Below, one piece after another: positions 11,231 through 60,843 of a stretch of DNA of 64,000 nt. Below the pieces are notes generated by a model, which was not told where the DNA came from, made no database searches, and saw only the letters and a program-made list of their open reading frames with translations. The position numbers and the translations under genes were made by a program. Each line of letters begins with the position of its first letter. The first letter of the stretch is position 1. This DNA comes from Phyllobates terribilis. Its lineage: Eukaryota. The stretch covers positions 568,974,001 through 569,038,000 of the forward strand of contig NW_027362765.1 of assembly GCF_046119375.1 (NCBI RefSeq). Reading direction: 5' to 3'.

Positions 11231-11249
11231 GTGGTTTGTTTCTTTTACA

Positions 11250-13775: not shown

Positions 13776-14689
13776 TAGAGATGAGCGTTGTTCTACTCGA
13801 ACTGTTCGCCAATCTCAAATTCGAGCTGTTTTGGGCGGTGTTCGAGCCGTTCGGCGAACACGAACGATTTGAGAAAAATTCGGCTGTTCGAGGTTATGTT
13901 CGATAACCGTGCACCAAAATCATAACTGGATTTTTTCTCAGTAATGATGAAAATTAATGTTAATACGCAGTTTGAGTGTACAGCGGGGTGGGGGGAGGGG
14001 CAGGGGATGGATCTCTGCAGGAACAATGAAGATCTCCATTTTTTTTTTCTCTTTCCCGCATTTACAGTGGGGAGGTGCAATCTGTCAGCCTATCAGCAGC
14101 GCACACACGGAGCGAAGTGCTTTTTTTCACACAAGCAAGGGCATGTGTCATTGGCAGTGTATGTCACATGTCCTTGCCCTATAAGACCAAGCCATTTTCC
14201 CCGTCGCCACCATTTTCTCACTGCTGCAGCTGCGTGTTAGACGGCACCGCTGTTGCTGTGTGCGCTATACCTTGTTAATTTCAAGCCAATTTTCGCACAA
14301 ATCTACAGATAGCTTGGGAGTAGGGAATAGTTGTGATTGCAGTCCTTTTAAGGACTAGGTTACAGCATTTCCTACGACTTTTATCAGGCAGGTCTGTGCT
14401 CTTAAATAGATAGATTGTGGGAGTAAAGACTAATTGTAATTGCAGACCTTTTCAGGACTAGGTTACATCAGTTCCTATCAGTTTTTGCCAGGCAGGTCTG
14501 TGCCAGTGCTGTGCAAGTTTTTTTCACAGCATTTGGCTGAATCTAGCAAAGCTAATCCTTTTTGGCTTATTGCACAGTGTGTTTGTCAGTGGAGTAGCCT
14601 ATCTGTGTTGCAAGATATACCACCTGTGTATAGAATACCAATTTTTTTACTGCACCTAGTGAAGTAAAATCTTTTGGGCATAGCATCAT

Positions 14690-17600
14690 TCTATTAGTCC
14701 ATCTATACTGACCTCCATCAGGTTGCAAATTGAATATAATTTTTTTCTGCATCTAGCTCTGAAAAAATATTTGGGCTTCTAGCAGTGTGTGGGACTTGTT
14801 CTATTAGTCCATCTATACTGACCTCCATCAGGTTGCAAACTGAATATAATTTTTTTCTGCATCTAGCTCTGAAAAAATATTTGGCCTTCTAGCAGTGTGT
14901 GGGACTTGTTCTATTAGTCCATCTATACTGACCTCCATCACGCTGCAAGTTCAAAATAATTTTTTGTCTGCATCTAGCTCTGAAAAAATATTTGGCCTTC
15001 TAGCAGTGTGTGGGACTTTCTCTATTAGTCCATCTATACTGACCTCCATCAGGCTGCAAATTAAAAATAATTTTTATCTGCATCTACCTCTGAAAAAATA
15101 TTTGGCCTTCTAGCTGTGTGTGAGACTTGTTCTATTAGTCCATCTATACTGACCTCCATCAGGTTGCAAATTGAATATAATTTTTTTCTGCATCTAGCTC
15201 TGAAAAAATATTTGGCCTTCTAGCAGTGTGTGGGACTTTCTCTATTAGTCCATCTATACTGACCTCCATCAGGTTGCAAATTAAAAATAATTTAGATCTG
15301 CATCTAGCTCTGAAAAAATATTTGGCCTTCTAGCAGTGTGTGGGACTTTCTCTATTAGTCCATCTATACTGACCTCCATCAGGTTAAAAATTCAAAATAA
15401 TTTTTATCTGCATCTACTTCTGAAAAAATATTTGGCCTTCTAGCTGTGTGTGGGAATTGTTCTATTAGTCCATCTATACTGACCTCCATCAGGCTGCAAA
15501 CTGAATATAATTTTTTTCTGCATCTAGCTCTGAAAAAATATTTGGCCTTCTAGCAGTGTGTGGGACTTTCTCTATTAGTCCATCTATACTGACCTCCATC
15601 AGGTTGCAAATTAAAAATAATTTTTTGTCTGCATCTAGCTCTGAAAAAATATTTGGCCTTCTAGCAGTGTGTGGGACTTTCTCTATTAGTCCATCTATAC
15701 TGACCTCCATCAGGTTGCAAATTAAAAATAATTTATATCTGCATCTAGCTCTGAAAAAATATTTGGCTTTCTAGCAGTGTGTGGCACTTTCTCTATAAGT
15801 CCATCTATACTGACCTCCATCAGGTTGCAAATTCAAAATAATTTTTTGTCTGCATCTAGCAATGAAAAAATATTTGGCCTTCTAGCAGTGTGTGGGACTT
15901 TCTCTATTAGTCCATCTATACTGACCTCCATCAGGCTACAAATTAAAAATAATTTTTATCTGCATCTACCTCTGAAAAAATATTTGGCCTTCTAGCTGTG
16001 TATGGGACTTGTTCTATTAGTCCATCTATACTGACCTCCATCAGGTTGCAAACTGAATATAATTTTTTTCTGCATCTAGCTCTGAAAAAATATTTGGCCT
16101 TCTAGCAGTGTGTGGGACTTTCTCTATTAGTCCATCTATACTGACCTCCATCAGGTTGCAAATTAAAAATAATTTATATCTGCATCTAGGTCTGAAAAAA
16201 TATTTGGCCTTCTAGCAGTGTGTGGGACTTTCTCTATTAGTCCATCTATACTGACCTCCATCAGGTTGCAAATTAAAAATAATTTTTTGTCTGCATCTAC
16301 CTCTGAAAAAATATTTGGCCTTCTAGCAGTGTGTGGGACTTTCTCTATTAGTCCATCTATACTGACCTCCATCATGTTGCAAATTAAAAATAATTTTTTG
16401 TCTGCATCTAGCTCTGGAAAAATATTTGGCCTTCTAGCAGTGTGTGGGACTTTCTCTATTAGTCCATCTATACTGACCTCCATCAGGTTGCAAACTGAAT
16501 ATATTTTTTTCTGCATCTACCTCTGAAAAAATATTGGGTTTCTAGCTGTGTGTGGGACTTGTTCTATTAATCCATCTATACAGACCTCCATCAGGTTGCA
16601 AACTGAATATATTTTTTTTCTGCATCTACCTCTGAAAAAATATTTGGGCTTCTAGCTGTGTGTGGGACTTGTTCTATTAGTCCATCTATACTGACCTCCA
16701 TCAGGTTGCAAACTGAATATAATATTTTTCTGCATCTAGCTCTGAAAAAATATTTGGCCTTCTAGCAGTGTGTGGGACTTTCTCTATTAGTCCATCTATA
16801 CTGACCTCCATCAGGTTGCAAATTCAAAGTAATTTTTATCTGCATCTACCTCTGAAAAAATATTTGGCCTTCTAGCTGTGTGTGGGACTTGTTCTATTAG
16901 TCCATCTATACTGACCTCCATCAGGTTGCAAACTGAATATAATTTTTTTCTGCATCTAGCTCTGAAAAAATATTTGGCCTTCTAGCAGTGTGTGGGACTT
17001 TCTCTATTAGTCCATCTATACTGACCTCCATCAGGTTGCAAATTAAAAATAATTTATATCTGCATCTAGCTCTGAAAAAATATTTGGCCTTCTAGCAGTG
17101 TGTGGGACTTTCTCTATTAGTCCATCTATACTGACCTCCATCAGGTTGCAAATTAAAAATAATTTATATCTGCATCTAGCTCTGAAAAAATATTTGGCCT
17201 TCTAGCAGTGTGTGGTACTTTCTCTATTAGTCCATCTATACTGACCTCCATCAGGTTGCAAATTAAAAATAATTTTTTGTCTGCATCTAGCTCTGAAAAA
17301 ATATTTGGCCTTCTAGCAGTGTGTGGGACTATCTATATTAGTCCATCTATACTGACCTCCATCAGGTTGCAAATTAAAAATAATTTATATCTGCATCTAG
17401 CTCTGAAAAAATATTTGGCCTTCTAGCAGTGTGTGGGACTTTCTCTATTAGTCCATCTATACTGACCTCCATCAGGTTGCAAATTAAAAATAATTTTTTG
17501 TCTGCATCTAGCTCTGAAAAAATATTTGGCCTTCTAGCAGTGTGTGGGACTTTCTCTATTAGTCCATCTATACTGACCTCCATCAGGTTGCAAATTAAAA

Positions 17601-18610
17601 ATAATTTTTTGTTTGCATCTAGCTCTGAAAAAATATTTGGCCTTCTAGCAGTGTGTGGGACTTTCTCTATTAGTCCATCTATACTGACCTCCATCAGGTT
17701 GCAAATTAAAAATAATTTTTATCTGCATCTAGCTCTGAAAAAATATTTGGCCTTCTAGCAGTGTGTGGGACTTTCACTATTAGTCCATCTATACTGACCT
17801 CCATCAGGTTGCAAATTAAAAATAATTTTTTGTCTGCATCTAGCTCTGAAAAAATATTTGGCCTTCTAGCAGTGTGTGGGACTTTCTCTATTAGTCCATC
17901 TATACTGACCTCCATCAGGTTGCAAATTAAAAATAATTTTTATCTGCATCTAGCTCTGAAAAAATATTTGGCCTTCTAGCAGTGTGTGGGACTTTCTCTA
18001 TTAGTCCATCTATACTGACCTCCATCAGGTTGCAAACTGAATATATTTTTTTTCTGCATCTACCTCTGAAAAAATATTGGGCTTCTAGCTGTGTGTGGGA
18101 CTTGTTCTATTAATCCATCTATACAGACCTCCATCAGGTTGCAAACTGAATATAATTTTTTTCTGCATCTACCTCTGAAAAAATATTTGGGCTTCTAGCT
18201 GTGTGTGGGACTTGTTCTATTAGTCCATCTATACTGACCTCCATCAGGTTGCAAACTGAATATAATTTTTTTCTGCATCTAGCTCTGAAAAAATATTTGG
18301 CCTTCTAGCAGTGTGTGGGACTTTCTCTATTAGTCCATCTATACTGACCTCCATCAGGTTGCAAATTAAAAATATTTTTTTGTCTGCATCTAGCTCTGAA
18401 AAAATATTTGGCCTTCTAGCAGTGTGTGGGACTTTCTCTATTAGTCCATCTATACTGACCTCCATCAGGCTGCAAATTAAAAATAATTTTTATCTGCATC
18501 TACCTCTGAAAAAATATTTGGCCTTCTAGCCGTGTGTGGGACTTGTTATATTAGTCCATCTATACTGACCTCCATCAGGTTGCAAATTGAATATAATTTT
18601 TTTCTGCATC
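14690..18610. repeat. ~110-bp VNTR, ~35 copies, upstream of the transposase
   Basis: Head-to-tail TCTATTAGTCCATCTATACTGACCTCCATCAGGTTGCAAA... units with no spacers. Confidence 0.97.
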
Positions 18611-18728
18611 TAACCCAGCCAATAGTTTTGGCCTAATACCACAGTTTGGCCACTCAGCTCTGCTCGGTTCCCATCCATTGTTTTTTTGTGCAAACAACTC
18701 CAGAGTTGTGAATTAGTTAACCACCAAA

Positions 18729-21700
18729 ATGAGTGGAAAAAGGCCTGCTGCTGGTGGAAAGGGGAATAGGCATGTTGGGAAGGGGAAAAAAGGTTGTGTC
18801 CGTGGGGTAGGTGTTAAAGCAACAGTAACATCTGCAGAAGAAAGACCATCTTCCAGCCAAACTAAAATGTCTACTTCTTTTAGCGGACAATGTGATAAGA
18901 TCCCTTTCTTACGGCCACGCCAATCGCTACAAATTCCAGATGAGGCACAAAAACAGCAGGTGCTTCAACGGATATCAAGTGCTCCTTTAAGTGGGCTCTC
19001 CTCCACATCAATTTCAACATCACAAATACTCCAGTCCTCAAAGGTGTCATCCCAATCGCACTTGCTTCCTCACAGCTCCCAAATCTCCAGCTGCCCGTCT
19101 GAGTATGAGGTAGAACAGATGGTTGAGTCTGCAGAGCTGTTTACTCATACTATAGCCTGGGAATCAGAGGTCGACTCCAGCGCTTCTGTGAATCCAGACG
19201 AGGAAATGATCTGCACTGATGCCCAGAATCTTTATGAGTCGGATCCAGGACCAGACGCAGAACGTTCTGACCATAATGTAGACCCTCATTCCCAAACTGT
19301 AACTCCTGTTCGTGGAGACAATGAGGAAGACGATGATGAGACTCAAATACCTGATTGGAGCGACAACTTTAGTTTTTTGTCAGGGCAGGAACAGGTTGGC
19401 TCTGAGGACGACGGGTGTGATAACGCACAGGGTGATGATGATGAGGTTGGAGATCCCACTTACTGTCAACCCACAGTCAGCCAAGAGATGAGGTCAGCAG
19501 AGGAGGTGGAGGAAGATGCTAGTGACGATGAGGTCAGGTTGCGCCTTCCTGGACAGAGACGTAGTACTGGAAGCACGTCAACAACTGCATCCTCAAACAC
19601 AACTCTGCCTCTCACCACAAGTCGTGGTGGCTCTTCAGGTCGCATGGGTGCTAAGCCTTGCATAGCCTGGGCATTTTTTCAGATCGATAAAGATGACCCA
19701 ACTCGTGTTATCTGTAACATTTGTCAGCAAAAGCTAAGTAGAGGCCAAAAAATACATAGTTTGAGTACTTCATGCATGAACCGGCACATGGACATGAAGC
19801 ATAAGTTGCAGAGGGAAGCGCAGTGTGCTACAATGCAGCCTAGCCGGCCGGGCCAACCACCGTCTGCCATATCTTGTGCATCCGCGGCCTCTTCATCCTC
19901 TGTGACTGGGGGGACAGCAGTCACACCTGTTTTGGGGCGCAGACCTGCTACCTCTTTACCCGCAACAGCCAGCGTGATTGGCAGGTCATCATTTTCTTTG
20001 GAGGTGGTAAAACCAGCTGGTGTTGAGCGCTGTCCGACATCGATAGCACCACCTTTGGATCAAGGCAACCTAACATGTCCGCCTGCATCTTCCTCACAGA
20101 CCGGCAGTTTGCCGGGGACACCCTTATCAACCCCGTCTAAGCACAATAGCCAGCCCTCGGTCCCTCAGATGTGGACAAGTAAAAGACCATTTCCTCCTAG
20201 CCATGAGAAAGCTAAGAGGTTGAATTTCACCATCTGCAAGCTCTTGGCTACAGAAATGCTGCCTTTCCGCCTGGTGGACACAGAGGATTTTCGAGACCTT
20301 ATGTCCGTCGCAGTGCCCCAGTACCAGATGCCCAGTCGGCACTACTTCTCAAAGAAAGGTGTTCCTGCGCTCCACCAGCATGTCGCACACAACATCACCG
20401 CTTCTTTGAGAAACTCTGTGTGTGACAGGGTGCATTTCACCACAGACACTTGGACGAGTAAGCATGGACATGTCGCTGACTGGGCACTGGGTAACTATGG
20501 TGACAGCAGGACAAGGGGCTGCTGTCCAAGTCTTGCCGTCCCCACGAGTTGTGCGTCAATCCTCTTTATGTCAAAGTTCCTCCACTGCTTCTGCCTCCTC
20601 AACCTCCTCTCGGTCTTCCACCTGCACCCAAAGTCTGTCTGGTCATGCCACAAGCTTTCTAACTGCGCAGAAGTGATCCTGCACACCTCCTTACTATGCT
20701 GGCAGTAGGGCTCAACGTCATCAGGCAGTTTTTACTTTGAAATGTCTGGGAAATGTGAGTCACACATCTGAGGAGTTGTGGTCAGCTCTGGAGAACCAAT
20801 TTCATGAATGGTTGTCTCCACTGGACCTGAAACCAGGGAAGGCCGTGTGCGACAATGCTGCAAACCTGGGTGCGGCCCTTCGCCGGGGCAATGTCACACA
20901 CGTGCCTTGTATGGCTCACGAATTGAACCTGGTTGTCCAGCAATTTTTAGCCCACTATCCCAGACTAGATGGCCTTCTGCAGAGGGCACGGTCGCTGTGT
21001 GCTCACTTCCGCCGTTCGCATCCCGCAGCTCAGCGACTTACATCTCTACAGAAGTCGTTGGGCCTGCCACTTCACCGGCTAAAATGCGATGTGCCTACCT
21101 GGTGGAATTCAACTCTGCACATGTTGCAGCGACTGTGGCAGCACTGACAAGCCCTGGTGCAATACGTTCTGACGTATAGCCTGGGCCAACGAGATCCAGA
21201 GGTGGGGCAAATCACGCTGGAGGAGTGGTCTCAGATCAGGGACCTATGCACCCTTCTGCACAGTTTTGAAATGGCGACGAAGATGTTTATTGCTGACGAT
21301 GCCATTATCAGCATGACTATTCCGGTGATTTACATGCTGGAGCACATGTTAAACAGAATTCGGAGTCAGGTGGTGGCACAAGAGGAGGTGGAGTAAGTAG
21401 AGGAGGAGGAGTTGTATGCGGAAGGGCTAACATCTGCAAGGTCCAGACGGTCGGCAGCACCAAGGCGGCAGGCATGTGAGGGTGGGGGAGATGGTTTTAC
21501 CAGGGCACATGGTAGCAGCCAAACTAGTGAGGAAGGTGCAGGAGCCCAGGAAGAAATGGAGGACGAACTGATGGAAGACTCATCAGATGAGGGAGACCTT
21601 GATCACATTTCTGTTGTGCGAGGTTGGGGGGAGAGGACAGAGGAAGGAAGCATGATTGTTACCTCGCCACCAACACAACAGGGACTTGGTGATCCTGGAT

Positions 21701-22425
21701 GCGCAACACACATGAGTGCCTTCTTGCTGCACTACCTGCAACATGACCCTCGAATTGTGAGATTTAGAATTAATCCTGACTACTGGGTTGCCACACTGTT
21801 AGATCCCCGGTACAAAAGTAAATTTGCAGAAATTATTCCTGCCATAGAAAGGGATGCACGCATGCAGGAGTATCAGCAGAGACTGTTGCAGAATCTTACA
21901 TGTGCTTTTCCACAAAACACCAGTGGTGCACGTAGTGAATCTCACAATTCCAACTTGCCAACCGTGGGACCGTCAAGTGTTCAGCACTCAAACCGTAACA
22001 GAACCACAGTATCTGCTGGTAACATCAATTTTGCGGAATCATTTCACCACTTTTTTAGCCCATCCTTTGCAAGGCCACAGGAAACAAGAAGTCTGACACA
22101 TAGTCAACGCCTAGAGACGATGGTACAGGAGTATCTCCAAGTAAACATTGAAGCCATGACTGTGTCACTGGACCCTTGCTCTTTTTGGGCTTCCAATCTG
22201 GATAAATGGCCGGAGCTAGCCACTTACGCCTTGGAGATCTTGTCATGCCCCGCAGCCAGCGTTCTGTCTGAACGTGTGTTCAGCGCTGCTGGTGGTGTGC
22301 TGACAGATAAGCGCACGCGGCTCTCCACTGATAATGTAGACAGACTCACGTTCATAAATGAACAAATCATGGATCCGAAACGACTTTTCTACCCCTGTGT
22401 CATCCTGTGGAGAGTAAAAGCTTGA
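18729..22425 (+). pseudogene. hAT (ZBED-like) transposase with BED finger, DDE core and dimerisation domain; several lesions
   Basis: BED (WAFF...CNIC...MNRHMDMKH), FTTDTW, CDNAAN, SERVFS; 11-bp deletion near 20470, stops at 21145 and 21394, frameshift near 22358 relative to copy B. Confidence 0.92.
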
Positions 22426-22449
22426 TGATTGGTTAAAATCACCTCACCA

Positions 22450-22740
22450 ACCGTTTTAAGCTTTCAAATTACTAATCATGTTTATCTGTATCTTGGCTGG
22501 AAAATAATTTGGGCTTTGTAGCATTTCAGCACTGATTCTATTAGGCCATCTATAATAAGCTCCACCAGATTTAAAATTACTAATCATGTTTATCTGTATC
22601 TTGGCTGGAAAATAATTTGGGCTTTGTAGCAGTGTGCAGCACTGATCCTATTAGGCCATCTATACTAAGCTCCACCAGATTTAAAATTAATAATAATTTT
22701 TAGCTACATCTAGCCCGGAAAATAATTTTGGGGCTCCGAG
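22450..22740. repeat. ~109-bp tandem units downstream of the transposase (~2.6 copies)
   Basis: AAATTACTAATCATG at ~22466 and ~22575; related to the upstream VNTR unit. Confidence 0.8.
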
Positions 22741-22854
22741 ATGCGCAAGACACATAAGTGCCTTCTTGCTGCACTACCTGCAACATGACCCTCATATTGT
22801 CAGAATTCGAAGTAATCATGACTACTGGGTTGCCACACTCTTAGATCCCCCAAA

Positions 22855-24223
22855 CTTTTCGATCAACCTTTTCATTTTAATAAAGACCAAAAAAATGGTC
22901 ATTTTTGAAATTATAAGCATTAGCAGGTTATTAGAAACTGAAATCAAACAGTTTTCAACTCAAAACTTTATTCTAGGTGATGTTATATTTTCACATAGGA
23001 CCACTTGTTCGAAAGGAGCTTCTGAACTCTCTCGTCCATTGAATTTGTCAGGTTTTGGATGGTTTCTGCTTCAATTGTTTTGCATGAGGACAGAATACCC
23101 TCCCAGAGCTGTTGCTTAGATGTGAACTGCCTCCCGCTATCATAGACACTCCTTTTGATGATGCTCCAGAGGTTCTGAATGGGGTAGAGGTCAGGGGAGC
23201 ATGGGGGTCACACCATAAGTTTGTCCCCTTTTATGCCCACATCAGCCAGAGATGAAGATGTGTTATGTGCAGCATGAGATGGTGCATTATCATGCATAAA
23301 AATGATCTTGCTGTGGAATACACGGTTATTCTTCTTGAACCATGGCAGGAAGTGCTGTTTGAGAAAATCCACATACATTATGGAGTTCATCTTTACCCCT
23401 TCAGGGATCCTAAAGGGGCCGACAATCTCTCTCCCCATGATTCTAGCCCAAAACATTACTCCACCTCCTCCTTGTTGGCGCTGTAGCCGTGTTTATGTGG
23501 GGTGTCCATCAACCAGCCATCCTCCACTCCATCCATCTGGACCATCGAGCGCTGCACGGCACTCATCCGTGAACAAAACAGTTTTGAAATCAGTCTTCAT
23601 GTAATGTTTGGCCCACTGGAGCCGTTTCTGCTTGTGTGAAGTGGATAGAGGAGTTCGATAGGATGGTGTATGCACAGCTGCAAACCTCTGAAGGACCCTG
23701 CATCTTGTTGTTCGGGGTACGTTGGAGGCACCAGCAGCTTCAAAAACTTGTCTGCTGCTATGACAAGGCTTTTTTGCCACTGCTCTTTTAACCTGACGTA
23801 ATTGCCTGTAGGAAAGAGTCCTCAATTTGCCCTTATCAGCACGCACACGTGTGTACTGTGAATCAGCTACATACTTCTTGATTGCCAAGACACTTCATCC
23901 TGATCATCGCACAATGTTGATTGTAGTCATGCCTTGACCTAAACACTCCACAATTTGTTGCTTCTCAACAGCCGACACATCCTTTTTCTTTCCCATTTTG
24001 GCAGAAAATGTAGGCTGCTTAATAATGTGAGACAGCCTTCTTAAGTAGTCTTGCCTTTCATTGGACACACCTGCCAAACTAATTAGCACAGGTGTCTGCA
24101 ATTGCTTACAGTGATATAAAGAGCCCTGACACACATCACCATCAATAAGTTTAACTGACAAACAAACAAATTCTTCCCTTACCACTCCTAAACACTTTTT
24201 GCATAATAATTTGGAACACAGTG
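22855..24223 (-). mobile_element. Tc1 (DD34E-type) element carried inside copy A; one TIR lost
   Basis: TIR CACTGTGTTCCAAATTATTATGCA next to TA; MGKKKDVS start, FTDE, HDNAPSH; flanked by pieces of a second hAT transposase fragment (22735-22850, 24224-24295). Confidence 0.88.
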
Positions 24224-24295
24224 TACATGTGCTTTTCCACAAAACACCAGAGGTTCACGTAGTGAATCTTACAGTTCTAACTTGCCAACCGTGGT

Positions 24296-24748
24296 CTGTA
24301 TGGAGTTGTTCAATAAAGGGCCCAAAATTAAGATAACATAGATGGGAGAGGTCTCTATGAATAGGAATTCCTAAGTATTTGATACCCTGTGAGGGCCAGA
24401 CAAAGGGAAAGTTGGACTGGATGGAATCCTGTATGGATTTGGGCAGGGAGACATCGAGGGCCTCAGACTTCGCTGCATTGATTTTAAAATTTGACCATGT
24501 AACAAAGTGATCTATTTCAGCCATAACAGCATGGATGGATATATGTGATTGAGTGATATATACTAGGACATCATCAGCAAATAGAGAGCACTTGTACTCG
24601 GTGCCTCCCACCTCAATCCACCTAATATTGGGGTTATGGCGAATTGATGAGAGCAGGTGCTCCGTCACTAGGATGTATAAGAGAGGGGACAGAGGACATC
24701 CCTGCCTTGTCCCATTGGTGATTGTGAAAGGTGATGAAAATGTTCTGA
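24296..24748 (-). pseudogene. L1-clade reverse transcriptase fragment
   Basis: FTITNGTRQGCPLSPLLY...LFADDVLVY...KYLGI motifs. Confidence 0.88.
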
Positions 24749-24807
24749 TGCACCCCCTGGGCCTTGGGACACCCGGAGCCGGACCCTTTTTGGTGGATGC
24801 TGGTGGT

Positions 24808-25959
24808 TGTAGTCTCCATGGCGGCGACCCCGTTCCGCGGCTCAGGGCGGTCAAACCAGTGGCGGAACTATTTATGTGGTTTTGATGTTTAAATGTCCAA
24901 CTACGCCACCCGTGGATTGCGGTCAGAGTGAACCGCCGCTGCAGGGCAGACCGCTGAGGCTGGTGTTGTGGGTGCAGCAGAGCGTAACATAACTCCCCAC
25001 GGGAGGAGTATAGCCTCAGGGCAGTGTATGCGGAGGATGGGGGTGATGGTGCAGGGCAGCAGCAGTAACGACACGGAGTCAGTGATGCAGTCCAGGGCCT
25101 TTACTCACAGTTCTTATTATCCAGACCACGTCTGCAGGTAACGGCTGCCCACGTCGTACTGTGCTCACCAGGTGAGGGGCTCAGACAACTCCCAGATAAC
25201 TTTGGAGCGCTTCACAGGACCCCCTTTGTGTGTCCTTTGTCTGGCCTTTCTTACCAACCCTTCTGTCCGGCTGCCTCGGGCCTCCTCTTGGTAAACTTGG
25301 CGCCAGTTTCCCTGACCCTATGTGGTGCCTTCCTAGCGGATGTAGCGAGGGGCTGCGCCACATAAAATGTCACAGCCTCCGGTTTCTAGCTGAGGGTCGT
25401 TTCCTGCCTCCACTAGTTTCGGGGACCGGTCTCCCCCTTTGGCCTGACCCCTCCACGCAGGTGGATTCGGGCGTGCGGTGGCAACTCGCCCGTCTGCACC
25501 CCTGGGATCCCTTCATTCCTCGTTCCTGGAGCCTTCTCCGCTCCTCTTCCTTCCTTCTCCCTCTTCCAGGCCTGGGCCTCTGTTACTAGGCCCGCCTCCG
25601 GAGCAGAGCTCATGCAGAGCCCCTGCTCCCTGCCACTTCTGCTCAGACTTCTCTGCACTGAACTAAGATGGTGCCCACCTTTTATACTCCCTTCTCAATG
25701 CACCCAGGAACTGCTTCCTCCCTGCTCCTGCACTACAGGGTTCCCCTTCCTCAGTGTTCCCTCCCCCCACTCCAGCCAGGGACAGGGACTGTCGTGCCCA
25801 TCTCAGAGGCATATTGGTCGCCCTGCCCCACGGCAATGTGGTGTAATGCATTCAGGTGTCGGGTCCTGATCCACACTCCATCCTTACCTGAGAGTGAGAT
25901 ATCACACCGCTGGGTGAGGTGCAATACCTCTGTAGCAAGCGAGCCCTCAGGGTGCTACA
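24808..25959 (-). mobile_element. Solo-type LTR (1152 bp), related to the LTRs at 1-4099
   Basis: TGTAGCACC...CTACA ends; shares start and CCTCAGCGG...GGTGGCGTAGT segments with the 2777-4099 LTR; flanking TSD not evident. Confidence 0.75.
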
Positions 25960-26234
25960 GTTCCATTTATCTTCAGCCTAGGTGACGTATTGTGATACAG
26001 GGCCGTGATTTTGGCTATAAAAGGGTCCCCTAGACCCCTACCCCAAGCTTTTTAAGAGAATCATATATGGCGTGCCAGGAGACTCTATGGAATGCTTTCT
26101 CAGCATCCAACGAGAGTATCTAATTACAAATTTTTAACTGCATCTAGCCCAGGAAATACTTTGTGCCTAGTAGCAGTGTCTGCTAGTCAGCGGATTATCC
26201 CGGCTGTTAAGCAAGCTACACCACCTGTTGTTTG

Positions 26235-42523: not shown

Positions 42524-42527
42524 TTAA

Positions 42528-49995: not shown

Positions 49996-50659
49996 TGTGT
50001 GACCCCGCTCTCCTCTGTCCACTTCTATGGGAGCAGTGGTGTAATGTAATAGACAATAAATACATGGTCTGTTATCTCTGTATAAGGCTCCTGCAGAGAC
50101 TTACACTGATATAGCAGAGCTGAACCAGTGATCAGAGCACAGCAGAGTTATGATTAGTGTTGAGCCACCCCCGTAGTGTTCGAGTTCGGTTCGGTTCGTC
50201 GAACACCCGTGTGTTTGTCGAACTGTTCGTCGAACTGTTCGTCAAACACCTTCGAACACCGTTAAAACCAATGGCAGGCAAACAAAAACACATAGAAACA
50301 CATAGAAAACACCTTCAAAGGTGTCCAAAAGCTGACAAACTGCTCTGAAGACACAACTAACACATGGAAAAGTGACAAGTACATATAGTCATGCGAAAAA
50401 AAAAGAGGTGGAGGAGTAAAAGGAGGGGGAGACACAGATATAGGCATGTCATGCCCTTCTAAAATCCAAAAAGTGAGAAGCCGACACGTTCAGTCCGCTC
50501 CTGCCCGTGCCACCTCCGTGTCGCCGGGTTTGTGCCAGAGCCGCGGTGAACCCTGACGGCCAGCCCCCCTCTCCCAATACTGGTGCCTGTCCGCTGGTGG
50601 GTCGAGCGAGCCCCCCTGTGGTGGAGGCAGCTCTAAGCTTTTTAATTTAAATTGTCTCT

Positions 50660-50925
50660 CTAATTTGAATGAATACACTTTAAATCCATTTACAAGGATC
50701 TATTGGAGGGCAAGTCTCATGCCAGCAGCCGCGTAATTCCAGCTCCAGTAGCGTCCACTAAAGCTGCTGCAGTTAAAAAGCTTTTATAAGGATCGAGCTC
50801 GGCTGTCCACCGCAAGGCATCCTACTGCCAGTCCCAGCCCCTATGCCTTGGGGTGCCTCCTGATGCTCTTCACTGAGTATCCCGTGGTCCCGAAGCATTT
50901 CCTTTGAAAAAATTAAGTGTCAAAA
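50660..50925 (+). pseudogene. 18S rRNA fragment (copy B)
   Basis: Same segment as 26235-26496, read in 18S sense on the + strand. Confidence 0.9.
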
Positions 50926-51196
50926 CTACAGGTGGTATAGCTTGCTTAACAGCCGGGATAATCCGCTGACTAGCAGACACTGCTACTAGGCACAAAGTAT
51001 TTTCTGGGCTAGATGCAGTTAAAAATTTGTAATTAGATACTCTCGTTGGATGCTGAGAAAGCATTCCATAGAGTCTCCTGGCACGCCATATATGATTCTC
51101 TTAAAAAGCTTGGGGTAGGGGTCTAGGGGACCCTTTTATAGCCAAAATCACGGCCCTGTATCGCAATACGTCACCTAGGCTGAAGATAAATGGAAC

Positions 51197-52348
51197 TGTA
51201 TTACCCTGAGGGCTCGGTTGCTACAGAGGTATTGCACCTCACCCAGAGGTGTGATATCTCACTCTCAGGTAAGGATGGAGTGTGGATCAGGACCCGACAC
51301 CTGCATGCATTACACCACATTGCCGTGGGGCAGGGCGACCAATATGCCCCTGAGATGGGCACGACAGTCCCTGTCCCTGGCTGGAGTGGGGGGAGGGAAC
51401 ACTGAGGAAGGGGAACCCTGTAGTGCAGGAGCAGGGAGGAAGCAGTTCCTGGGTGCATTGAGAAGGGAGTATAAAAGGTTGGCACCATCTTAGTTCAGTG
51501 CAGAGAAGTCTGAGCAGAAGTGGCAGGGAGCAGGGGCTCTGCATGAGCTCTGCTCCGGAGGCGGGCCTAGTAACAGAGGCCCAGGCCTGGAAGAGGGAGA
51601 AGGAAGGAAGAGGAGTGGAGAAGGCTCCAGGAACGAGGAATGAAGGGATCCCATGGGTGCGGACGGGCGAGTCGCCACCGCACACCCGAATCCACCTGCG
51701 TGGAGGGGTCAGGCCAAAGGGGGAGACCGGTCCCCAAAACTAGTGGAGGCAGGAAATGACCCTCAGCTAGAAACAGGAGGCTGTGACATTTTATGTGGTG
51801 CAGCCCCTCGCTACACCCGCTAGGAAGGCACCACATAGGGTCAGGGAAACTGGCGCCAAGTTTACCAAGAGGAGGCCCGAGGCAGCCGGACAGAAGGGTT
51901 GGTAAGAAAGGCCAGACAAAGGACACACAAAGGGGGCCCTGTGAAGCGCTCCAAAGTTATCTGGGAGTTGTCTGAGCCCCTCACCTGGTGAGCACAGTAC
52001 GACATGGGCAGCCGTTACCTGCAGACGTGGTCTGGATAATAAGAACTGTGAGTAAAGGCCCTGGACTGCATCACTGACTCCGTGTCGTTACTGCTGCTGC
52101 CCTGCACCATCACCCCCATCCTCCGCATACACTGCCCTGAGGCTATACTCCTCCCGTGGGGAGTTATGCTACGCTCTGCTGCACCCACAACACCAGCCTC
52201 AGCGGTCTGCCCTGGAGCGGCGGTTCACTCTGACCGCAATCCATGGGTGGCGTAGTCGGACATTTAAACATCAAAACCACATAAATAGTTCCGCCACTGG
52301 TTTGACCGCCCTGAGCCATGGAACCGGGTCGCCGCCACGGAGACTACA
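51197..52348 (+). mobile_element. Solo-type LTR (copy B)
   Basis: TGTATTACCCTGAGGG...GACTACA; 1152 bp, same length as in copy A. Confidence 0.75.
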
Positions 52349-52407
52349 ACCACCAGCATCCACCAAAAAGGGTCCGGATCCGGGTGTCCCAAGGCCCAGG
52401 GGGCGCG

Positions 52408-52860
52408 TCAGAACATTTTCATCACCTTTCACAATCACCAATGGGACAAGGCAGGGATGTTCTCTGTCCCCTCTCTTATACATCCTAGTGACGGAGCACC
52501 TGCTCTCATCAATTCGCCATAACCCCAATATTAGGTGGATTGAGGTGGGAGGCACCGATTACAAGTGCTCTCTATTTGCTGATGATGTCCTAGTATATAT
52601 CACTCAATCACATATATCCATCCATGCTGTTATGGCTGAAATAGATCACTTTGTTACATGGTCAAATTTTAAAATCAATGCAGCGAAGTCTGAGGCCCTC
52701 GATGTCTCCCTCCCCAAATCCATATAGGATTCCATCCAGTCCAACTTTCCCTTTGCCTGGCCCTCACAGGGTATCAAATACTTAGGAATTCCTATTCATA
52801 GAGACCTCTCCCATCTATGTTATCTTAATTTTGGGCCCTTTATTGAACAACTCCATACAG
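52408..52860 (+). pseudogene. L1 RT fragment (copy B)
   Basis: GTRQGCSLSP...LFADDV motifs. Confidence 0.88.
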
Positions 52861-52932
52861 ACCACGGTTGGCAAGTTAGAACTGTAAGATTCACTACGTG
52901 AACCACTGGTGTTTTGTGGAAAAGCACATGTA

Positions 52933-54300
52933 CACTGTGTTCCAAATTATTATGCATAAAGTGTTTAGGAGTGATAAGGGAAGAATTTGTTTGTTTGTCA
53001 GTTAAACTCATTGATGGTGTTGTGTGTCAGGGCTCTTTATATCACTGTAAGCAATTGCAGATACCTGTGCTAATTAGTTTGGCAGGTGTGTCCAATGAAA
53101 GGCAAGACTACTTAAGAAGGCTGTCTCACATTATTAAGCAGCCTACATTTTCTGCCAAAATGGGAAAGAAAAAGGATGTGTCGGCTGCTGAGAAGCAACA
53201 AATTGTGGAGTGTTTAGGTCAAGGCATGACTACAATCAACATTGTGCGATGATCAGGATGAAGTGTCTTGGCAATCAAGAAGTATGTAGCTGATTCACAG
53301 TACACACGTGTGCGTGCTGATAAGGGCAAATTGAGGACTCTTTCCTACAGGCAATTACGTCAGGTTAAAAGAGCAGCGGCAAAAAAGCCTTGTCATAGCA
53401 GCAGACAAGTTTTTGAAGCTGCTGGTGCCTCCAACGTCCCCTGAACAACAAGATGCAGGGTCCTTCAGAGGTTTGCAGCTGTGCATACGCCATCCTGTCG
53501 ACCTCCTCTATCCACTTCACACAAGCAGAAACGGTTCCAGTGGGCCAAACATTACATGAAGACTGATTTCAAAACTGTTTTGTTCACGGATGAGTGCCGT
53601 GCAGCGCTCGATGGTCCAGATGGATGGAGTGGAGGATGGCTGGTTGATGGACACCCCACGCAAACACGGCTACAGCGCCAACAAGGAGGAGGTGGAGTAA
53701 TGTTTTGGGCTGGAATCATGGGGAGAGAGATTGTCGGCCCCTTTAGCATCCCTGAAGGCGCTAAAGATGAACTCCATAATGTATGTGGATTTTCTCAAAC
53801 AGCACTTCCTGCCATGGTTCAAGAAGAAGAACCGTATATTTCACAGCAAGATCATTTTTTTGCATGATAATGCACCATCTCATGCTGCACATAAAACATT
53901 TGCATCTCTGGCTGATATGGGCATAAAAGGGGACAAACTTATGGTGTGACCCCCATGCTCCCCTGACCTCTACCCCATTCAGAACCTCTGGAGCATCATC
54001 AAAAGGAGTGTCTATGATGGCGGGAGGCAGTTCACATCTAAGCAACAGCTCTGGGAGGGTATTCTGTCCTCATGCAAAACAATTGAAGCAGAAACCATTC
54101 AAAACCTGACAAATTCAATGGACGAGACAGTTCAGAAGCTCCTTTCGAACAAGGGGTCCTATGTGAAAATGTAACATCACCTAGAATAAAGTTTTGAGTT
54201 GAAAACTGTTTGATTTCAGTTTCTAATAACCTGCTAATGCTTATAATTTCAAAAATGACCATTTTTTTGGTCTTTATTAAAATGAAAAGTTTGATCGAAA
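52933..54300 (+). mobile_element. Tc1 element (copy B); disabled transposase ~53160-54174
   Basis: TA|CACTGTGTTCCAAATTATTATGCA; FTDE, HDNAPSH and SPDLYPIQNLW; stops and frameshifts. Confidence 0.88.
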
Positions 54301-54631
54301 AGTTTGGGGGATCTAAGAGTGTGGCAACCCAGTAGTCATGATTACTTCGAATTCTGACAATATGAGGGTCATGTTGCAGGTAGTGCAGCAAGAAGGCACT
54401 TATGTGTCTTGCGCATCTCGGAGCCCCAAAATTATTTTCCGGGCTAGATGCAGCTAAAAATTATTATTAATTTTAAATCTGGTGGAGCTTAGTATAGATG
54501 GCCTAATAGGATCAGTGCTGCACACTGCTACAAAGCCCAAATTATTTTCCAGCCAAGATACAGATAAACATGATTAGTAATTTGAAAGCTTAAAACGGTT
54601 GGTAGGGTGATTTTAACCAATCATCCATCTT

Positions 54632-57600
54632 TTACTCTCCCCAGGATGACACAGGGGTAGAAAAGTCGTTTCGGATCCATGATTTGTTCATCTTTATGAA
54701 CGTGAGTCTGTCTACATTATCAGTGGAGAGCCGCGTGCGCTTATCTGTCAGCACACCACCAGCAGCGCTGAACACACGTTCAGACAGAACGCTGGCTGCG
54801 GGGCATGACAAGATCTCCAAGGCGTAAGTGGCTAGCTCCGGCCATTTATCCAGATTGGAAGCCCAAAAAGAGCAAGGGTCCAGTGACACAGTCATGGCTT
54901 CAATGTTTACTTGGAGATACTCCTGTACCATCGTCTCTAGGCGTTGACTACGTGTCAGACTTCTTGTCTCCTGTGGCCTTGCAAAGGATGGGCTAAAAAA
55001 GTGGTGAAATGATTTCGCAAAATTGATGTTACCAGCAGATACTGTGTTATGGTTTGAGTGCTGAACACTTGACGGTCCCACGGTTGGCAAGTTGGAACTG
55101 TGAGATTCACTACGTGCACCACTGGTGTTTTGTGGAAAAGCATATGTAAGATTCTGCAACAGTCTCTGCTGATACTCCTGCATGCGTGCATCCCTTTCTA
55201 TGGCAGGAATAATTTCTGCAAATTTACTTTTGTACCGGGGATCTAACAGTGTGGCAACCCAGTAGTCAGGATTATTTCTAATTCTCACAATTCGAGGGTC
55301 ATGTTGCAGGTAGTGCAGCAAGAAGGCACTCATGTGTGTTGCGCATCCAGGAGCACCAAGTCCCTGTTGTGTTGGTGGCGAGGTAACAATCATGCTTCCT
55401 TCCTCTGTCCTCTCCCCCCAACCTCGCACAACAGAAATGTGATCAAGGTCTCCCTCATCTGATGAGTCTTCCATCAGTTCGTCCTCCACTTCTTCCTGGG
55501 CTCCTGCACCTTCCTCACTAGTTTGGCTGCTACCATGCGCCCTGGTAAAACCATCTCCCCCACCCTCACATGCCTGCCACCTTGGTGCTGCCGACCGTCT
55601 GGACCTTGCAGATGTTAGCCCTTCCGCATACAACTCCTCCTCCTCTACTTCCTCCACCTCCTCTTGTGCCACCACCTGACTTCGAATTCTGTTTAACATG
55701 TGCTCCAGCATGTAAATCAACGGAATATTCATGCTGATAATGGCATCGTCAGCACTAAACATCTTCGTCGCCATTTCAAAACTGTGCAGAAGGGTGTATA
55801 GGTCCCTGATCTGAGACCACTCCTCCAGCGTGATTTGCCCCACGTCTGGATCTCGTTGGCCCAGGCTATACGTCAGAACGTATTGCACCAGGGCTTGTCG
55901 GTGCTGCCACAGTCGCTGCAACATGTGCAGAGTTGAATTCCACCGGGTAGGCACATCGCATTTTAGCCGGTGAAGTGGCAGGCCCAACGACTTCTGTAGA
56001 GATGTAAGTCGCTGAGCTGCGGGATGCGAACGGCGGAAGTGAGCACACAGCGACCGTGCCCTCTGCAGAAGGCCATCTAGTCTGGGATAGTGGGCTAAAA
56101 ATTGCTGGACAACCAGGTTCAACACGTGAGCCATACAAGGCACGTGTGTGACATTGCCCCGGCGAAGGGCCGCACCCAGGTTTGCAGCATTGTCGCACAC
56201 GGCCTTCCCTGGTTTCAGGTCCAGTGGAGACAACCATTCATGAAATTGGTTCTCCAGAGCTGACCACAATTCCTCAGCTGTGTGACTCACATTTCCCAGA
56301 CATTTCAAAGTAAAAACCGCCTGATGACGTTGAGCCCTACTGCCAGCATAGTAAGGAGGTGTGCAGGATCCCTTCTGCGCAGTTAGAAAGCTTGTGGCAT
56401 GACCAGACAGGCTTTGGGTGCAGGTGGAAGACCGAGAGGAGGTTGAGCAGGCAGAAGCAGTGGAGGAACTTTGACATAAAGAGGATTGACGCACAACTCG
56501 TGGGGACGGTAAGACTTGGACAGCAGCCCCTTGTCCTGCTGTCACCATAGTTACCCAGTGCCCAGTCAGCGACATGTAACGCCCCTGTCCATGCCTACTC
56601 GTCCAAGTGTCTGTGGTGAAATGCACCCTGTCACACACAGAGTTTCTCAAAGAAGCGGTGATGTTGTGTGCGACATGCTGGTGGAGCGCAGGCACACCTT
56701 TCTTTGAGAAGTAGTGCCGACTGGGCATCTGGTACTGGGGCACTGCGACGGACATAAGGTCTCGAAAATCCTCTGTGTCCACCAGGCGGAAAGGCAGCAT
56801 TTCTGTAGCCAAGAGCTTGCAGATGGTGAAATTCAACCTCTTAGCTTTCTCATGGCTAGGAGGAAATTGTCTTTTACTTGTCCACATCTGAGGGACCGAG
56901 GGCTGGCTATTGTGCTTAGACGGGGTTGATAAGGGTGTCCCCGGCAAACTGCCGGTCTGTTAGGAAGATGCAGGCGGACATGTTAGGCTGCCTTGATCCA
57001 AAGGTGGTGCTATCGATGTCGGACAGCGCTCAACACCAGCTGGTGTTACCACCTCCAAAGAAAATGATGACCTTCCAATCACGCTGGCTGTTGCGGGTAA
57101 AGAGGTGGCAGGTCTGCGCCCCAAAACAGGTGTGACTGCTGTCCCCCCAGTCACAGAGGATGAAGAGGCCGCGGATGCACAAGATATGGCAGACGGTGGA
57201 TGGCCCGGCCCGCTAGGCCGCATTGTAGCACACTGAGCTTCCCACTGCAACTTATGCTTCATGTCCATGTGCCGGTTCATGCATGAAGTACTCAAACTAT
57301 GTATTTTTTGGCCTCTACTTAGCTTTTGCTGACAAATGTTACAGATAACACGAGTTGGGTCATCTTTATCGATCTGAAAAAATGCCCAGGCTATGCAAGG
57401 CTTAACACCCATGCGACCTGAAGAGCCACCACGACTTGTGGTGAGAGGCAGAGTTGTGTTTGAGGATGCAGTTGTTGACGTGCTTCCAGTACTACGTCTC
57501 TGTCCAGGAAGGCGCAACCTGACCTCGTCGTCACTAGCATCTTCCTCCACCTCCTCTGCTGACCTCATCTCTTGGCTGACTGTGGGTTGACAGTAAGTGG

Positions 57601-58327
57601 GATCTCCAACCTCATCATCATCACCCTGTGCGTTATCACACCCGTCGTCCTCAGAGCCAACCTGTTCCTGCCCTAACAAAAAACTAAAGTTGTCGCTACA
57701 ATCAGGTATTTGAGTCTCTTCATCGTCATCCTCATTGTCTCCACCAACAGGAGTTACAGTTTGGGAATGAGGGTCTACATTATGGTCAGAACCTTCTGCG
57801 TCTGGTCCTGGATCCGACTCATAAAGATTCTGGGCATCAGTGCAGATCATTTCCTCGTCTGGATTCACAGAAGCGCTGGAGTTGACCTCTGATTCCCAGG
57901 CTATAGTATGAGTAAACAGCTCTGCAGACTCAACCATCTGTTCTAACTCATACTCAGACGGGCAGCTGGAGATTTGGGAGCTGTGAGGAAGCAAGTGCGA
58001 TTGGGGTGACACCTTTGAGGACTGGAGTATTTGTGATGTTGAAGTTGATGTGAAGGAGAGCCCACTTAAAGGAGCACTTGATATCCGTTGAAGCACCTGC
58101 TGTTTTTGTGCCTCATCTGGAATTTGTAGCGATTGGCGTGGCCGTAAGAAAGGGATCTTATCACATTGTCCGCTAAAAGAAGTAGACATTTTAGTTTGGC
58201 TGGAAGATGGTCTTTCTTCTGCAGATGTTACTGTTGCTTTAACACCTACCCCACGGACACAACCTTTTTTCCCCTTCCCAACACGCCTATTCCCCTTTCC
58301 ACCAGCAGCAGGCCTTTTTCCACTCAT
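54632..58327 (-). pseudogene. hAT transposase, 1231 codons, interrupted by a single stop
   Basis: ORFs 56960-58327 and 54632-56947 are in frame; TAA at 56960-56962 where copy A has TCA; BED, D-D-E and dimerisation motifs intact. Confidence 0.93.
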
Positions 58328-58439
58328 TTTGGTGGTTAACTAATTCACAACTCTGGAGTTGTTTGCACAAAAAAACAATGGATGGGAACCGAGCAGAGCT
58401 GAGTGGCCAAACTGTGGTATTAGGCCAAAACTATTGGCT

Positions 58440-59170
58440 GGGTTAGATGCAGAAAAAAATTATATTCAATTTGCAACCTGATGGAGGTCAGTATAGATGG
58501 AGTAATAGAACAAGTCCCACACACAGCTAGCAGCCCAAATATTTTTTCAGAGCTGGATGCAGATAAAAATTATTTTTAATTTGCAACCTGATGGAGGTCA
58601 GTATAGATGGACTAATAGAGAAAGTCCCACACACTGCTAGAAGGCCAAATATTTTTTCAGAGCTAGATGCAGACAAAAAATTATTTTGAATTTGCAGCGT
58701 GATGGAGGTCAGTATAGATGGACTAATAGAACAAGTCCCACACACAGCTAGAAGCCCAAATATTTTTTCAGAGGTTGATGCAGATAAAAATTATTTTTAA
58801 TTTGCAACCTGATGGAGGTCAGTATAGATGGACTAATAGAGAAAGTCCCACACACTGCTAGAAGGCCAAATATTTTTTCAGAGCTAGATGCAGAAAAAAA
58901 TTATATTCAGTTTGCAACCTGATGGAGGTCTGTATAGATGGATTAATAGAACAAGTCCCACACACAGCTAGAAGCCCAATATTTTTTCAGAGGTAGATGC
59001 AGAAAAAAATATATTCAGTTTGCAACCTGATGGAGGTCAGTATAGATGGACTAATAGAGAAAGTCCCACACACTGCTAGAAGGCCAAATATTTTTTCAGA
59101 GCTAGATGCAGAAAAAAATTATATTCAATTTGCAACCTGATGGAGGTCAGTATAGATGGACTAATAGAAT
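58440..59170. repeat. ~110-bp VNTR, ~6-7 copies (copy B)
   Basis: Reverse complement of the 14690-18610 unit. Confidence 0.95.
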
Positions 59171-60843
59171 GATGCTATGCCCAAAAGATTTTACTTCACT
59201 AGTTGCAGTAAAAAAATTGGTATTCTATACACAGGTGGTATATCTTGCAACACAGATAGGCTACTCCACTGACTAACACACTCTGCAATAGGCCAAAAAG
59301 GATTAGCTTTGCTAGATTCAGCCAAATGCTGTGAAAAAAACTTGCACAGCACTGGCACAGACCTGCCTGGCAAAAACTGATAGGAACTGATGTAACCTAG
59401 TCCTGAAAAGGACTCCAATTACAATTAGTCTTTACTCCCACAACCTATCTATTTAAGAGCACAGACCTGCCTGATAAAAGTCGTAGGAAATGCTGTAACC
59501 TAGTCCTTAAAAGGACTGCAATCACAACTATTCCCTACTCCCAAGCTATCTGTAGATTTGTGGGAAAATTGGCTTGAAATTAACAAGGTATAGCGCACAC
59601 AGCAACAGCGGTGCCATCTAACACGCAGCTGCAGCAGTGAGAAAATGGTGGCGACGGGGAAAATGGCTTGGTCTAATAGGGCAAGGACATGTGACATACA
59701 CTGCCAATGACACATGCCCTTGCTTGTGTGAAAAAAAGCACTTCGCTCCGTGTGTGCGCTGCTGATAGCCTGACAGATTGCACCTCCCCACTGTAAATGC
59801 GGGAAAGAGAAAAAAAAATGGAGAACTTCATTATTCCTGCAGAGATCCATCCCCTGCCCCTCCCCCCACCCCGCTGTACACTCAAACTGCGTATTAACAT
59901 TAATTTTCATCATTACTGAGAAAAAATCCAGTTATGATTTTGGTGCACGAACAGTTATCGAACATAACCTCGAACAGCCAAATTTTTCTCAAATCGTTCG
60001 TGTTCGCCGAACGGCTCGAACACCGCCCAAAACATCTCGAATTTGAGATTGGCGAACAGTTCGAGTAGAACAACGCACATCTCTAGTTATGATTGTCCTT
60101 GTATGCTCTGAACACGGTGTCGGCGGGCAGTGATCAGCAGCCTGGTGTTCTACTAACGTGAGACTTTTAACACTGCTCACCGCTGCCAATACTCACCTCA
60201 TCCTAGACCTCCACATCCCGGCACCTCCTTTCACGGATGCATCTAGATTGGAGGCTCCTGTGAGGCTCCTTCCAGCAGCTCCTCTCTAAATGGCTCACTG
60301 GCGAGGTGACTAGAATGGAGCAGCTCTACTGAGGATCTCACCGGAGCTTCCACTCTAGACAGCTTAGAGCTGAGGTGGCCGGAACTGCTGGAGCAAGGTC
60401 CTGACAGGGACAGGTCTAATGTAGATGGCTCATCACTGACAGGACCAGAATGGAGGTGATTCCAGCAGCTCCCCAGACTCCATTCTAATCACCTCATTAC
60501 AGGACTGACTAGAATGGAGTCACTGCAATGTGGAGCCCAGATTATAATCAGGCGCAGGAAGTATATTGAACAGGCTTTATAAATGCTCAACAATTTTGTG
60601 GCTTTTTAATTTTTTTGGGAGTATTGCTCAAGTTTTTAATAGAGTAAACATAAAAAAAATACATTAATTTTTTTTACATTGATTTTTTTATGTATTTCTA
60701 AGGGGCAAACAATTCTGCAAAATTCAGTTTTTTTCTGATTAGCAAAACTTGTATTTTTCCTATCGCTTTTTGTAATATATATATAAAAAAAATCACACAC
60801 AGTGCTGATTGCTCAGTTTGATAGAATTTGACTTTTCCCGTCA

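Follow-up and report, generated by a model that had tools for sequence, protein, structure and literature searches.

Two inverted copies of a cargo-laden hAT transposon that moved as a unit in Phyllobates terribilis

Two copies between different target-site duplications

The window analysed here, a 64,000-nucleotide stretch of the Phyllobates terribilis assembly GCF_046119375.1 (contig NW_027362765.1, positions 568,974,001 to 569,038,000 of the forward strand), contains two copies of a transposable element, A and B, which are inverted to each other and lie 23 kb apart. Copy A (13776–27000, plus strand, 13,225 bp) is placed between two CTCGTTGG octamers (13768–13775 and 27001–27008), and copy B (50155–60085, minus strand, 9,931 bp) between two GTTATGAT octamers (50147–50154 and 60086–60093), all four read on the plus strand. 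As an initial annotation of the window had recognized, these are perfect 8-bp target-site duplications (TSDs), the length made by the hAT superfamily, and they differ between the two copies. The chance of a perfect 8-bp match is 1.7e-5 at one given pair of ends and 2.8e-10 at both. A scan for ends resembling the terminal inverted repeats (TIRs) returned four of the left type and four of the right type; three pairings have flanks with at most two mismatches, and only those of A and B are perfect. By its TSDs, its ends and its transposase, the element is a hAT.

The left end of A (13776–14689, plus strand) consists of an imperfect 11-bp TIR, subterminal motifs and a 103-bp tandem pair, and the right end is a terminal module that carries the other TIR (26685–27000, plus strand); the left end and TIR of B occupy 59170–60085 (minus strand). 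Left and right TIRs agree at 9 of 11 positions in A and at 8 of 11 in B. GTTCG/CGAAC motifs occur 8 times in the first 200 bp of A and 10 times in the last 200 bp, against 71 times in the whole window. This clustering of subterminal repeats at both ends, with a putative role in binding, is a hAT feature; TIRs with dense subterminal motifs are described for hAT ends in general (PMC10368747). The target pattern nTnnnnAn, given for Hermes in the same source, is matched by B and by the right flank of an older relative (D, below), whereas A matches the T alone. The TSD octamer of B is also present inside the element, where 0.4 occurrences are expected by chance.

Next to the left end lies a variable-number tandem repeat (VNTR) with a 110-bp unit, of which A has 35.6 copies (14690–18634, plus strand) and B has 6.6 (58422–59169, minus strand). 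The units of A differ from each other at 7 positions on average, and unit-by-unit comparison gave no clear higher-order period. Twenty of 35 A units differ at 4 or more positions from every full B unit, and the comparison suggests, not decisively, that the VNTR of B shrank. The 3.3-kb gap in size between the copies is tandem repeat, i.e., 110-bp VNTR units plus one 108-bp unit of a second array described below.

Apart from the VNTR, the two copies match closely from end to end. In a self-comparison of the window they form one long inverted match (13776–27003 against 60085–50152); identity is 896/912 (98.3%) in the left end and 8,110/8,252 (98.3%; Kimura two-parameter distance 0.0174) after the VNTR, where the 142 substitutions are evenly distributed (chi2 14.6, df 16, p 0.56). 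Gene conversion of the Tc1 or long terminal repeat (LTR) part was considered and rejected, as divergence is without significant heterogeneity. All 12 internal junctions of A are also present in B (40-bp probes from A, 0–3 mismatches in B), and each of the 12 probes matches exactly twice within the window. The 500-bp flanks of A and B are unrelated, with alignment scores of 20 and 21 against a mean of 19.4 and a maximum of 27 after shuffling.

Copy A is inserted into the transposase of an older relative, C, which it splits into a 3′ part with its native 3′ region (12107–13775, minus strand) and a 5′ part from about codon 33 (27001–29381, minus strand), 93% identical to A and B. The homologous transposase stretch in B carries the octamer once, with the flanks intact, and so represents the empty site. 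Because the gene of B reads through this single octamer, the TSD of A is a true duplication and no bases were lost. An exact 80-bp tandem duplication at 12509–12668, in the 3′ end of the transposase of C, is a very recent change in this old copy.

The initial annotation had argued that the cargo was put together before transposition and that the block, including rDNA sequence and dead elements of class I and class II, was mobile as a unit, and had named homology beyond the TSDs, i.e., a segmental duplication, as evidence that would tell against it. Its argument holds. The 12 common junctions, the distinct TSDs and the unrelated flanks place assembly of the cargo before transposition; TSDs, empty site, flanks and uniform divergence mark the block as mobile; and both copies carry the dead pieces, which were duplicated along with the element. 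Proximity and inverted orientation would also suit a segmental duplication in inverted form, gene conversion from one neighbour to the other or a faulty assembly, and the VNTR length could be mis-assembled. However, flank scores stand at the shuffled level, homology ends exactly at the TIRs, the TSDs differ, the empty site of A can be reconstructed from its paralogue, and the substitutions are evenly spread. A segmental duplication is rejected, and this group of explanations as a whole is hardly credible; the block was, with near certainty, moved as one unit by hAT transposition.

A nearly intact transposase and its nested passengers

The transposase gene of A (18726–22430, plus strand) encodes a BED domain, a DDE core and a dimerisation domain; that of B (54632–58330, minus strand) spans 1,232 codons, with one premature stop (codon 457) and no frameshift. 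The A gene has 11-bp and 2-bp deletions and three premature stops, all private to A, and no lesion is common to the two copies across 1,226 aligned codons. Neither copy is autonomous today, given the one stop in B and the five lesions in A. The reading frame of B keeps the motifs TTDTW, CDN, CxxH, PTRWNS and SERVF. Pfam identifies zf-BED (E 2e-10) and Dimer_Tnp_hAT (E 2e-15), and a match to Hermes (E 7e-21) aligns the second Asp, CxxH, TRWNS and SER; the Asp of TTDTW we take, from the motif, to be the first catalytic Asp. The Pfam scan covered 145 of the 156 open reading frames (ORFs) listed for 9–31 kb (11 short off-frame ORFs inside C being omitted), the two transposase ORFs of B, and all 80 ORFs elsewhere in the window. 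The first 43 protein matches of the transposase are frog records or unnamed, 34–84% identical and annotated, for example, as 'ZBED4/6-like'. Its nearest relatives are dendrobatid models, from Ranitomeya variabilis (79% over 449 residues) and R. imitator (83–86% over 70 residues).

With C as outgroup, A has 28 private changes and B has 26 in 3,516 sites, and the two copies appear to have decayed neutrally for the same length of time. The ratio of nonsynonymous to synonymous substitution rates (dN/dS) is 0.96 between A and B; for B against the two arms of C it is 0.52 and 0.41, in each case significantly below 1 (Fisher p 2.5e-4 and 4.6e-4). A ratio near 1 for A and B, and well under 1 for B and C, points to selection on the transposase until about the time of the A/B split. 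Since B has one stop and no frameshift, and the lesions of A are private, the transposase ORF of the donor was very probably open. The element might instead have been non-autonomous in practice, with a silent ORF, and moved in trans by another member of the family. The close transposase relatives in dendrobatid protein sets would be in keeping with such a helper, as would the neutrality of both the A and the B branch. The lack of any shared lesion in the 1,226 codons and the purifying selection on the deeper branch argue the other way, and we regard movement in trans as improbable.

A second tandem array, of another 110-bp repeat type (2.5 units), follows the transposase of A (22459–22727, plus strand) and leads into the cargo; B has one 108-bp unit fewer here. 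The cargo begins with a 123-bp transposase scrap (22728–22850, plus strand), which derives from a second, older hAT transposase and resumes as a 71-bp scrap of that transposase at 24224–24294 (plus strand). Between the two scraps lies a dead Tc1 element (22851–24223, minus strand). The single remaining TIR tip of Tc1 stands at 24223, at a TA (24224) of the scrap, and its opposite end was removed together with 88 bp of the scrap. The second Asp and the Glu position are 37 residues apart (DD37E spacing, TRT-like), in a reading of ~337 codons with stops, in which Gln occupies the Glu position; TRT (DD37E) elements are defined by a 37-residue spacing, a length of about 338 residues and a TA target (PMC5630946).

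The next passenger is an L1 ORF2 reverse transcriptase (RT) fragment in two parts (24295–24745 and 25960–26112, minus strand), interrupted by a 1,214-bp solo LTR with TG..CA ends (24746–25959); the continuity of the RT reading across the LTR was judged by eye. In a PDB search the fragment matches LINE-1 ORF2p chains (E 1e-26), the next RT match being at E 0.0018, and by these scores it is closest to LINE-1 ORF2p and is assigned to the L1 clade. The solo LTR has the 4-bp TSD GTTC on both sides, in both copies, and matches the LTR pair at 1–4103 weakly (71–75%). A hAT 3′ subterminal repeat remnant (26113–26229, plus strand), related to the 3′ repeat of C (12107–12198), comes next, followed by an 18S rRNA pseudogene fragment of ~270 bp (26230–26497, minus strand), which is antisense and scores 69–71 bits against Rfam RF01960 (gathering score 50). 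The last piece before the terminal module is a GC-rich module, X (26529–26684, 69% GC). Module X has no match in Rfam; for two of its six frames, the minus-strand ORF found none among 335 candidates among longer proteins, and the plus-strand frame had no phmmer hit and no usable hit in the Atlas.

The same order is found in the 3′ half of B (50155–54618, minus strand, from terminus to repeats), i.e., module X (50472–50627), 18S (about 50659–50926), L1 and LTR (51044–52861), and scraps and Tc1 (52862–54429). The stops and the loss of the catalytic Glu of Tc1 are common to A and B, as are two lesions within a conserved stretch of the 18S fragment, one a substitution and the other a 1-nt deletion. 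Since these lesions occur in both copies, the Tc1 and 18S passengers were dead beforehand.

The initial annotation had listed a VNTR, a transposase, 109-bp repeats, a duplicate transposase fragment, Tc1, L1 RT, LTR and 18S side by side. All of these parts are present, but they are nested, Tc1 within the second hAT scrap and the solo LTR within L1, and the repeat unit varies from 108 to 111 bp. The supposed duplicate fragment corresponds to the two scraps flanking Tc1 and is no recent self-duplicate, as 16–19 of 194 sites separate it from the gene of the element itself. The size of 10–13 kb is in part tandem repeat, the VNTR taking up 3.9 kb of A and 0.75 kb of B; the non-hAT DNA amounts to 3,646 bp, or 28% of A and 37% of B.

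Older relatives and the origin of the element

Copy A lies within an older rearranged region (9909–30545) that has the same right terminus. On one side of A and C is the right end of the relative D (29386–30545, plus strand), with module X, 713 bp that are absent from A and B, and the terminus, in which 288 of 300 ungapped sites are identical to A. Module X of D (29386–29529) agrees with that of A at 125 of 144 sites. The additional 713 bp are flanked by an 8-bp direct repeat and contain more of X and a DIRS-like RT. On the other side (9909–12110, plus strand) lies a repeat unit of D type (9909–10027), to which RNase H-like and tyrosine recombinase sequences and the 3′ part of this DIRS-like element are joined, on the strand opposite to its RT piece. 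Five named RT proteins of frogs align through residues of about 70–280 to 30233–29780 (minus strand) and through residues of about 460–570 to 10027–10330 (plus strand); a tyrosine recombinase-like ORF comes next, with a Pfam E of 0.0017, below the cut-off. The name DIRS is our assumption from this gene order.

The DIRS-like element is split into two orientations 20 kb apart (10027–12110 and 29760–30242). One ORF in two orientations points to an inversion inside the older hAT; when it is reversed, the repeat unit comes to stand before the transposase of C, and the DIRS-like element falls within the 3′ region. On this ground, C and D probably represent a single old copy. Since D carries foreign DNA at the same terminus, foreign DNA next to this right end predates the A/B split. 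No TSD partner and no left-end homologue of D were found in 1–13700; the stretch at 9715–9905 adjoins the repeat unit of D, where its left end would be expected, and is without a Pfam hit, although its reading presumably resembles a Penelope-type RT, as judged by eye. We note that the breaks in A/B and in D fall at almost identical phases of the repeat unit (22727–22729 and 10027) and at almost the same left edge of module X (26529 and 29386), in each case joining different sequences. In D, a short inverted repeat of G/C forms the edge of X, and these sites may be fragile.

With this region for comparison, the 3′ 4.5 kb of A and B look like the remains of an older relative among the hATs, and the element as a whole seems, on balance, to be a compound of two hAT copies, the left half young and the right half old. 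Several observations favour such a compound over piecemeal filling of one element. C retains ~330 bp of its own 3′ region past the stop codon, from which A and B depart after 28 bp. The last unit of the array at 22459–22727 matches the D-type repeat (9947–10026) at 74 of 80 sites and the element's own VNTR at 62 of 80. The transposase scraps, set against C, differ at only 12–13 of the 194 sites. Module X and the terminus are common to A, B and D, and the 713 bp by which D exceeds the other two lie within an 8-bp direct repeat. In addition, repeat, transposase, 3′ repeat and terminus follow one another as in a complete element of the same orientation.

The alternative nearest to the initial annotation is a single hAT with both of its own ends, in which nested insertions, together with template switching in the course of gap repair or replication, brought the cargo into the 3′ subterminal region, in the manner of Pack-TIRs or Ds fillers, before it transposed. 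Repeats of the 110-bp type on both sides of the cargo (22459–22727 and 26113–26229) and short homologies at several junctions are in keeping with this, Pack-TIRs typically showing microhomology fillers (PMC8277862). The 96% ungapped identity of the A and D termini, moreover, is about what 93% transposase identity would lead one to expect within one lineage. A single element would, however, require the separate capture of a foreign-subfamily scrap already holding Tc1, beside a repeat of foreign type, in the right order and on the right strand, whereas a degraded second copy supplies scrap, Tc1, repeat, order and strand at once. The single-element origin is thus the less probable of the two, though a serious contender.

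Several points weigh against the compound and against its self-mobilization. The scraps offer few diagnostic sites, and these give a mixed signal, 5 being C-like, 3 A/B-like, 8 private and 1 other. The window yielded no intact ancestor, no parental locus and no left end of D, and the repeats at 22459 could accordingly be native to the A/B subfamily. At the junction of X with the terminus, A does not show what the 8-bp repeat would cleanly produce, ~7 further bases being gone. The copies seen number two. An open ORF, taken alone, would not establish expression or action in cis. Finally, the VNTR units of B do not map in order onto those of A, and because of this, donor and recipient cannot be told apart.

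A compound origin would have proceeded as follows. An older hAT copy would have died and taken in Tc1 (in its transposase, at a TA), L1 and the solo LTR (in L1), gained the 18S piece, as well as module X with a DIRS-like element, and shrunk via short-homology deletions. A younger coding copy upstream, in the same direction, would have lost its own right end 28 bp past the stop codon; the sole usable ends would then have been the left end of the younger copy and the right end of the older one, which together delimit a compound of ~10–13 kb. Transposition as a unit, the next step, is recorded directly in the two different 8-bp TSDs. An open transposase of 1,232 codons would have allowed the donor to furnish the enzyme itself, and a replicative local hop over 23 kb would be the simplest account of the second copy. 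Neutral decay of both copies, during which the VNTR lengths diverged, is the last step and is visible in A and B themselves. Taken as a whole, the account of A and B as sibling copies of an anuran hAT compound, mobilized by ordinary cut-and-paste chemistry, is the one we favour with some reserve.

The local hop itself is likely. Local hopping of the hAT Tol2 is reported in Xenopus (PMC2848417). A and B together make up 36% of the window, about ten times the 3.91% that all hATs make up in the assembly of Dendrobates tinctorius (PMC11152451), and because of this excess over a related genome the pair reflects local clustering and not genome-wide density. On a rate borrowed from Xenopus (3.0–3.2e-9; PMC9250109), the A/B split dates to about 2.7–2.9 million years ago.

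The window is otherwise dense in repeats. An LTR pair (1–745 and 3362–4103, 95.7% identical over 739 bp), the left member clipped by the window edge, has a primer-site-like stretch past the left LTR and a 248-residue ORF (1004–1750) without a Pfam hit, and is probably a non-autonomous LTR element. A degraded long interspersed nuclear element (LINE) at 31696–34583 (minus strand), which we take to be CR1/L2-like, has RT, endonuclease and GDSL-esterase Pfam hits. A second Tc1-like element (62112–63603) has ~190-bp inverted repeats (92%) and a DDE_3 hit, and its DNA is unlike that of the cargo Tc1. Minisatellites occur at 43555–46162 (31 bp × 84), 6582–7230 (159 bp × 4) and 48499–48849 (44 bp × 8), and short inverted-repeat elements, resembling MITEs (miniature transposable elements with inverted repeats), at 39224–39603, 41967–42527, 46570–47165, 60749–61205 and 8263–8554. 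Further hAT-type ends, with the same start (TAG.G.TGAGC), lie at 5249 and 7997–8024, including a 28-bp head-to-head pair, and are without a matching TSD. A giant hAT starting at 5249 or 7997 was rejected for want of a perfect TSD, and the pairing of 7997 with 60085 (two mismatches) was put down to chance.

Significance and comparison with known systems

The pair shows that one hAT element is able to duplicate, as a single unit, a sizeable load of debris from the genome. In A and B, a vertebrate provides a clean natural case, about fifteen times larger than the median Pack-TIR capture, with a transposase that is nearly intact and an empty site that can be proven. With the 12 junctions as probes, it offers a direct test of whether some of the young-looking signal of Tc1, L1, LTR or dispersed rDNA in giant frog genomes is passive carriage; should no further copies exist, it is a neat local instance of a mechanism known from maize. 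Inflation of the apparent copy number of dead elements, which the initial annotation proposed for such a vehicle, would be a candidate effect, the copies in hand being two, 23 kb apart. A broader possibility, which we hold to be doubtful, is that A and B belong to a long-lived, self-mobilizing hAT lineage that builds compounds from neighbouring dead copies and spreads genome-wide in large frog genomes. Because D, ~7% diverged, already had foreign DNA at the same right end, cargo-bearing ends would persist for millions of years, with the transposase under selection all the while. Were such a lineage real, it would have multiplied dead Tc1, L1, LTR and rDNA scraps, left false signals of a 'recent burst' in repeat landscapes, and added kilobases per jump to genome growth.

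The consensus sequences of Xenopus hAT-9 and hAT-10 may likewise be ~10 kb long. The transposase of A and B resembles that of Xenopus hAT-10 (1,033 residues; PMC9250109) and those annotated as ZBED4/6-like in anurans, all being long proteins with BED, DDE and dimerisation domains. No account of the A/B element was found in the literature searched, which did not extend to Repbase, Dfam or most subscription journals. The searched text of a review of giant transposons (PMC6431247) does not contain the word 'hAT', and the portion of bioRxiv 2025.11.13.688278 that was available has a remark on nested hATs only.

Among animal elements, a close parallel is Pack-hAT-N8_XT of Xenopus tropicalis, likewise a frog hAT with captured DNA and distinct TSDs, which show transposition after capture. 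Multicopy Pack-TIRs number only four cases in animals, with a median of 224 bp of captured DNA (291 bp in the frog example), and their consensus carriers are mostly short relics, according to PMC8277862. The two copies A and B, with their two TSDs, are a multicopy element with distinct TSDs as Tan et al. (2021) require of Pack-TIRs; unlike the animal Pack-TIRs, however, they carry 3.6 kb of mostly transposon-derived DNA and a near-intact transposase. Within this cargo, only the 18S fragment and module X could qualify as Pack-TIR capture, which calls for a parental copy elsewhere, unlinked to the TIR element; the rest is mostly transposon-derived. MER6 is an instance in vertebrates of a class I piece, the V domain of a short interspersed nuclear element (SINE), spread on a DNA transposon, but it is a short Mariner-derived MITE with one passenger (PMC6887750). 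ToxhAT of wheat fungi is, like A and B, a large hAT-type composite (14 kb) with a nested second DNA transposon and mobility from TIR to TIR (PMC6737239). ToxhAT, as described there, has passed from species to species and bears a gene under selection, whereas the cargo of A and B is dead and without sign of benefit.

In mechanism, the element resembles the Ac/Ds macrotransposons of maize. In these, the hAT ends of separate elements carry the intervening DNA, including nested retrotransposons, as a unit and create an 8-bp TSD; cases of 10.3 kb and 28 kb are described, and copies can multiply (PMC3260210, PMC9910405). The intervening DNA of A and B likewise moved with its ends and gained a new TSD. 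Unlike the maize macrotransposons, which come from Ac-active lines, A and B are a natural, decayed vertebrate insertion, for which an origin from two elements is inferred from sequence. In sum, the mechanism is already known from maize; for a vertebrate, both the size and the load are out of the ordinary.

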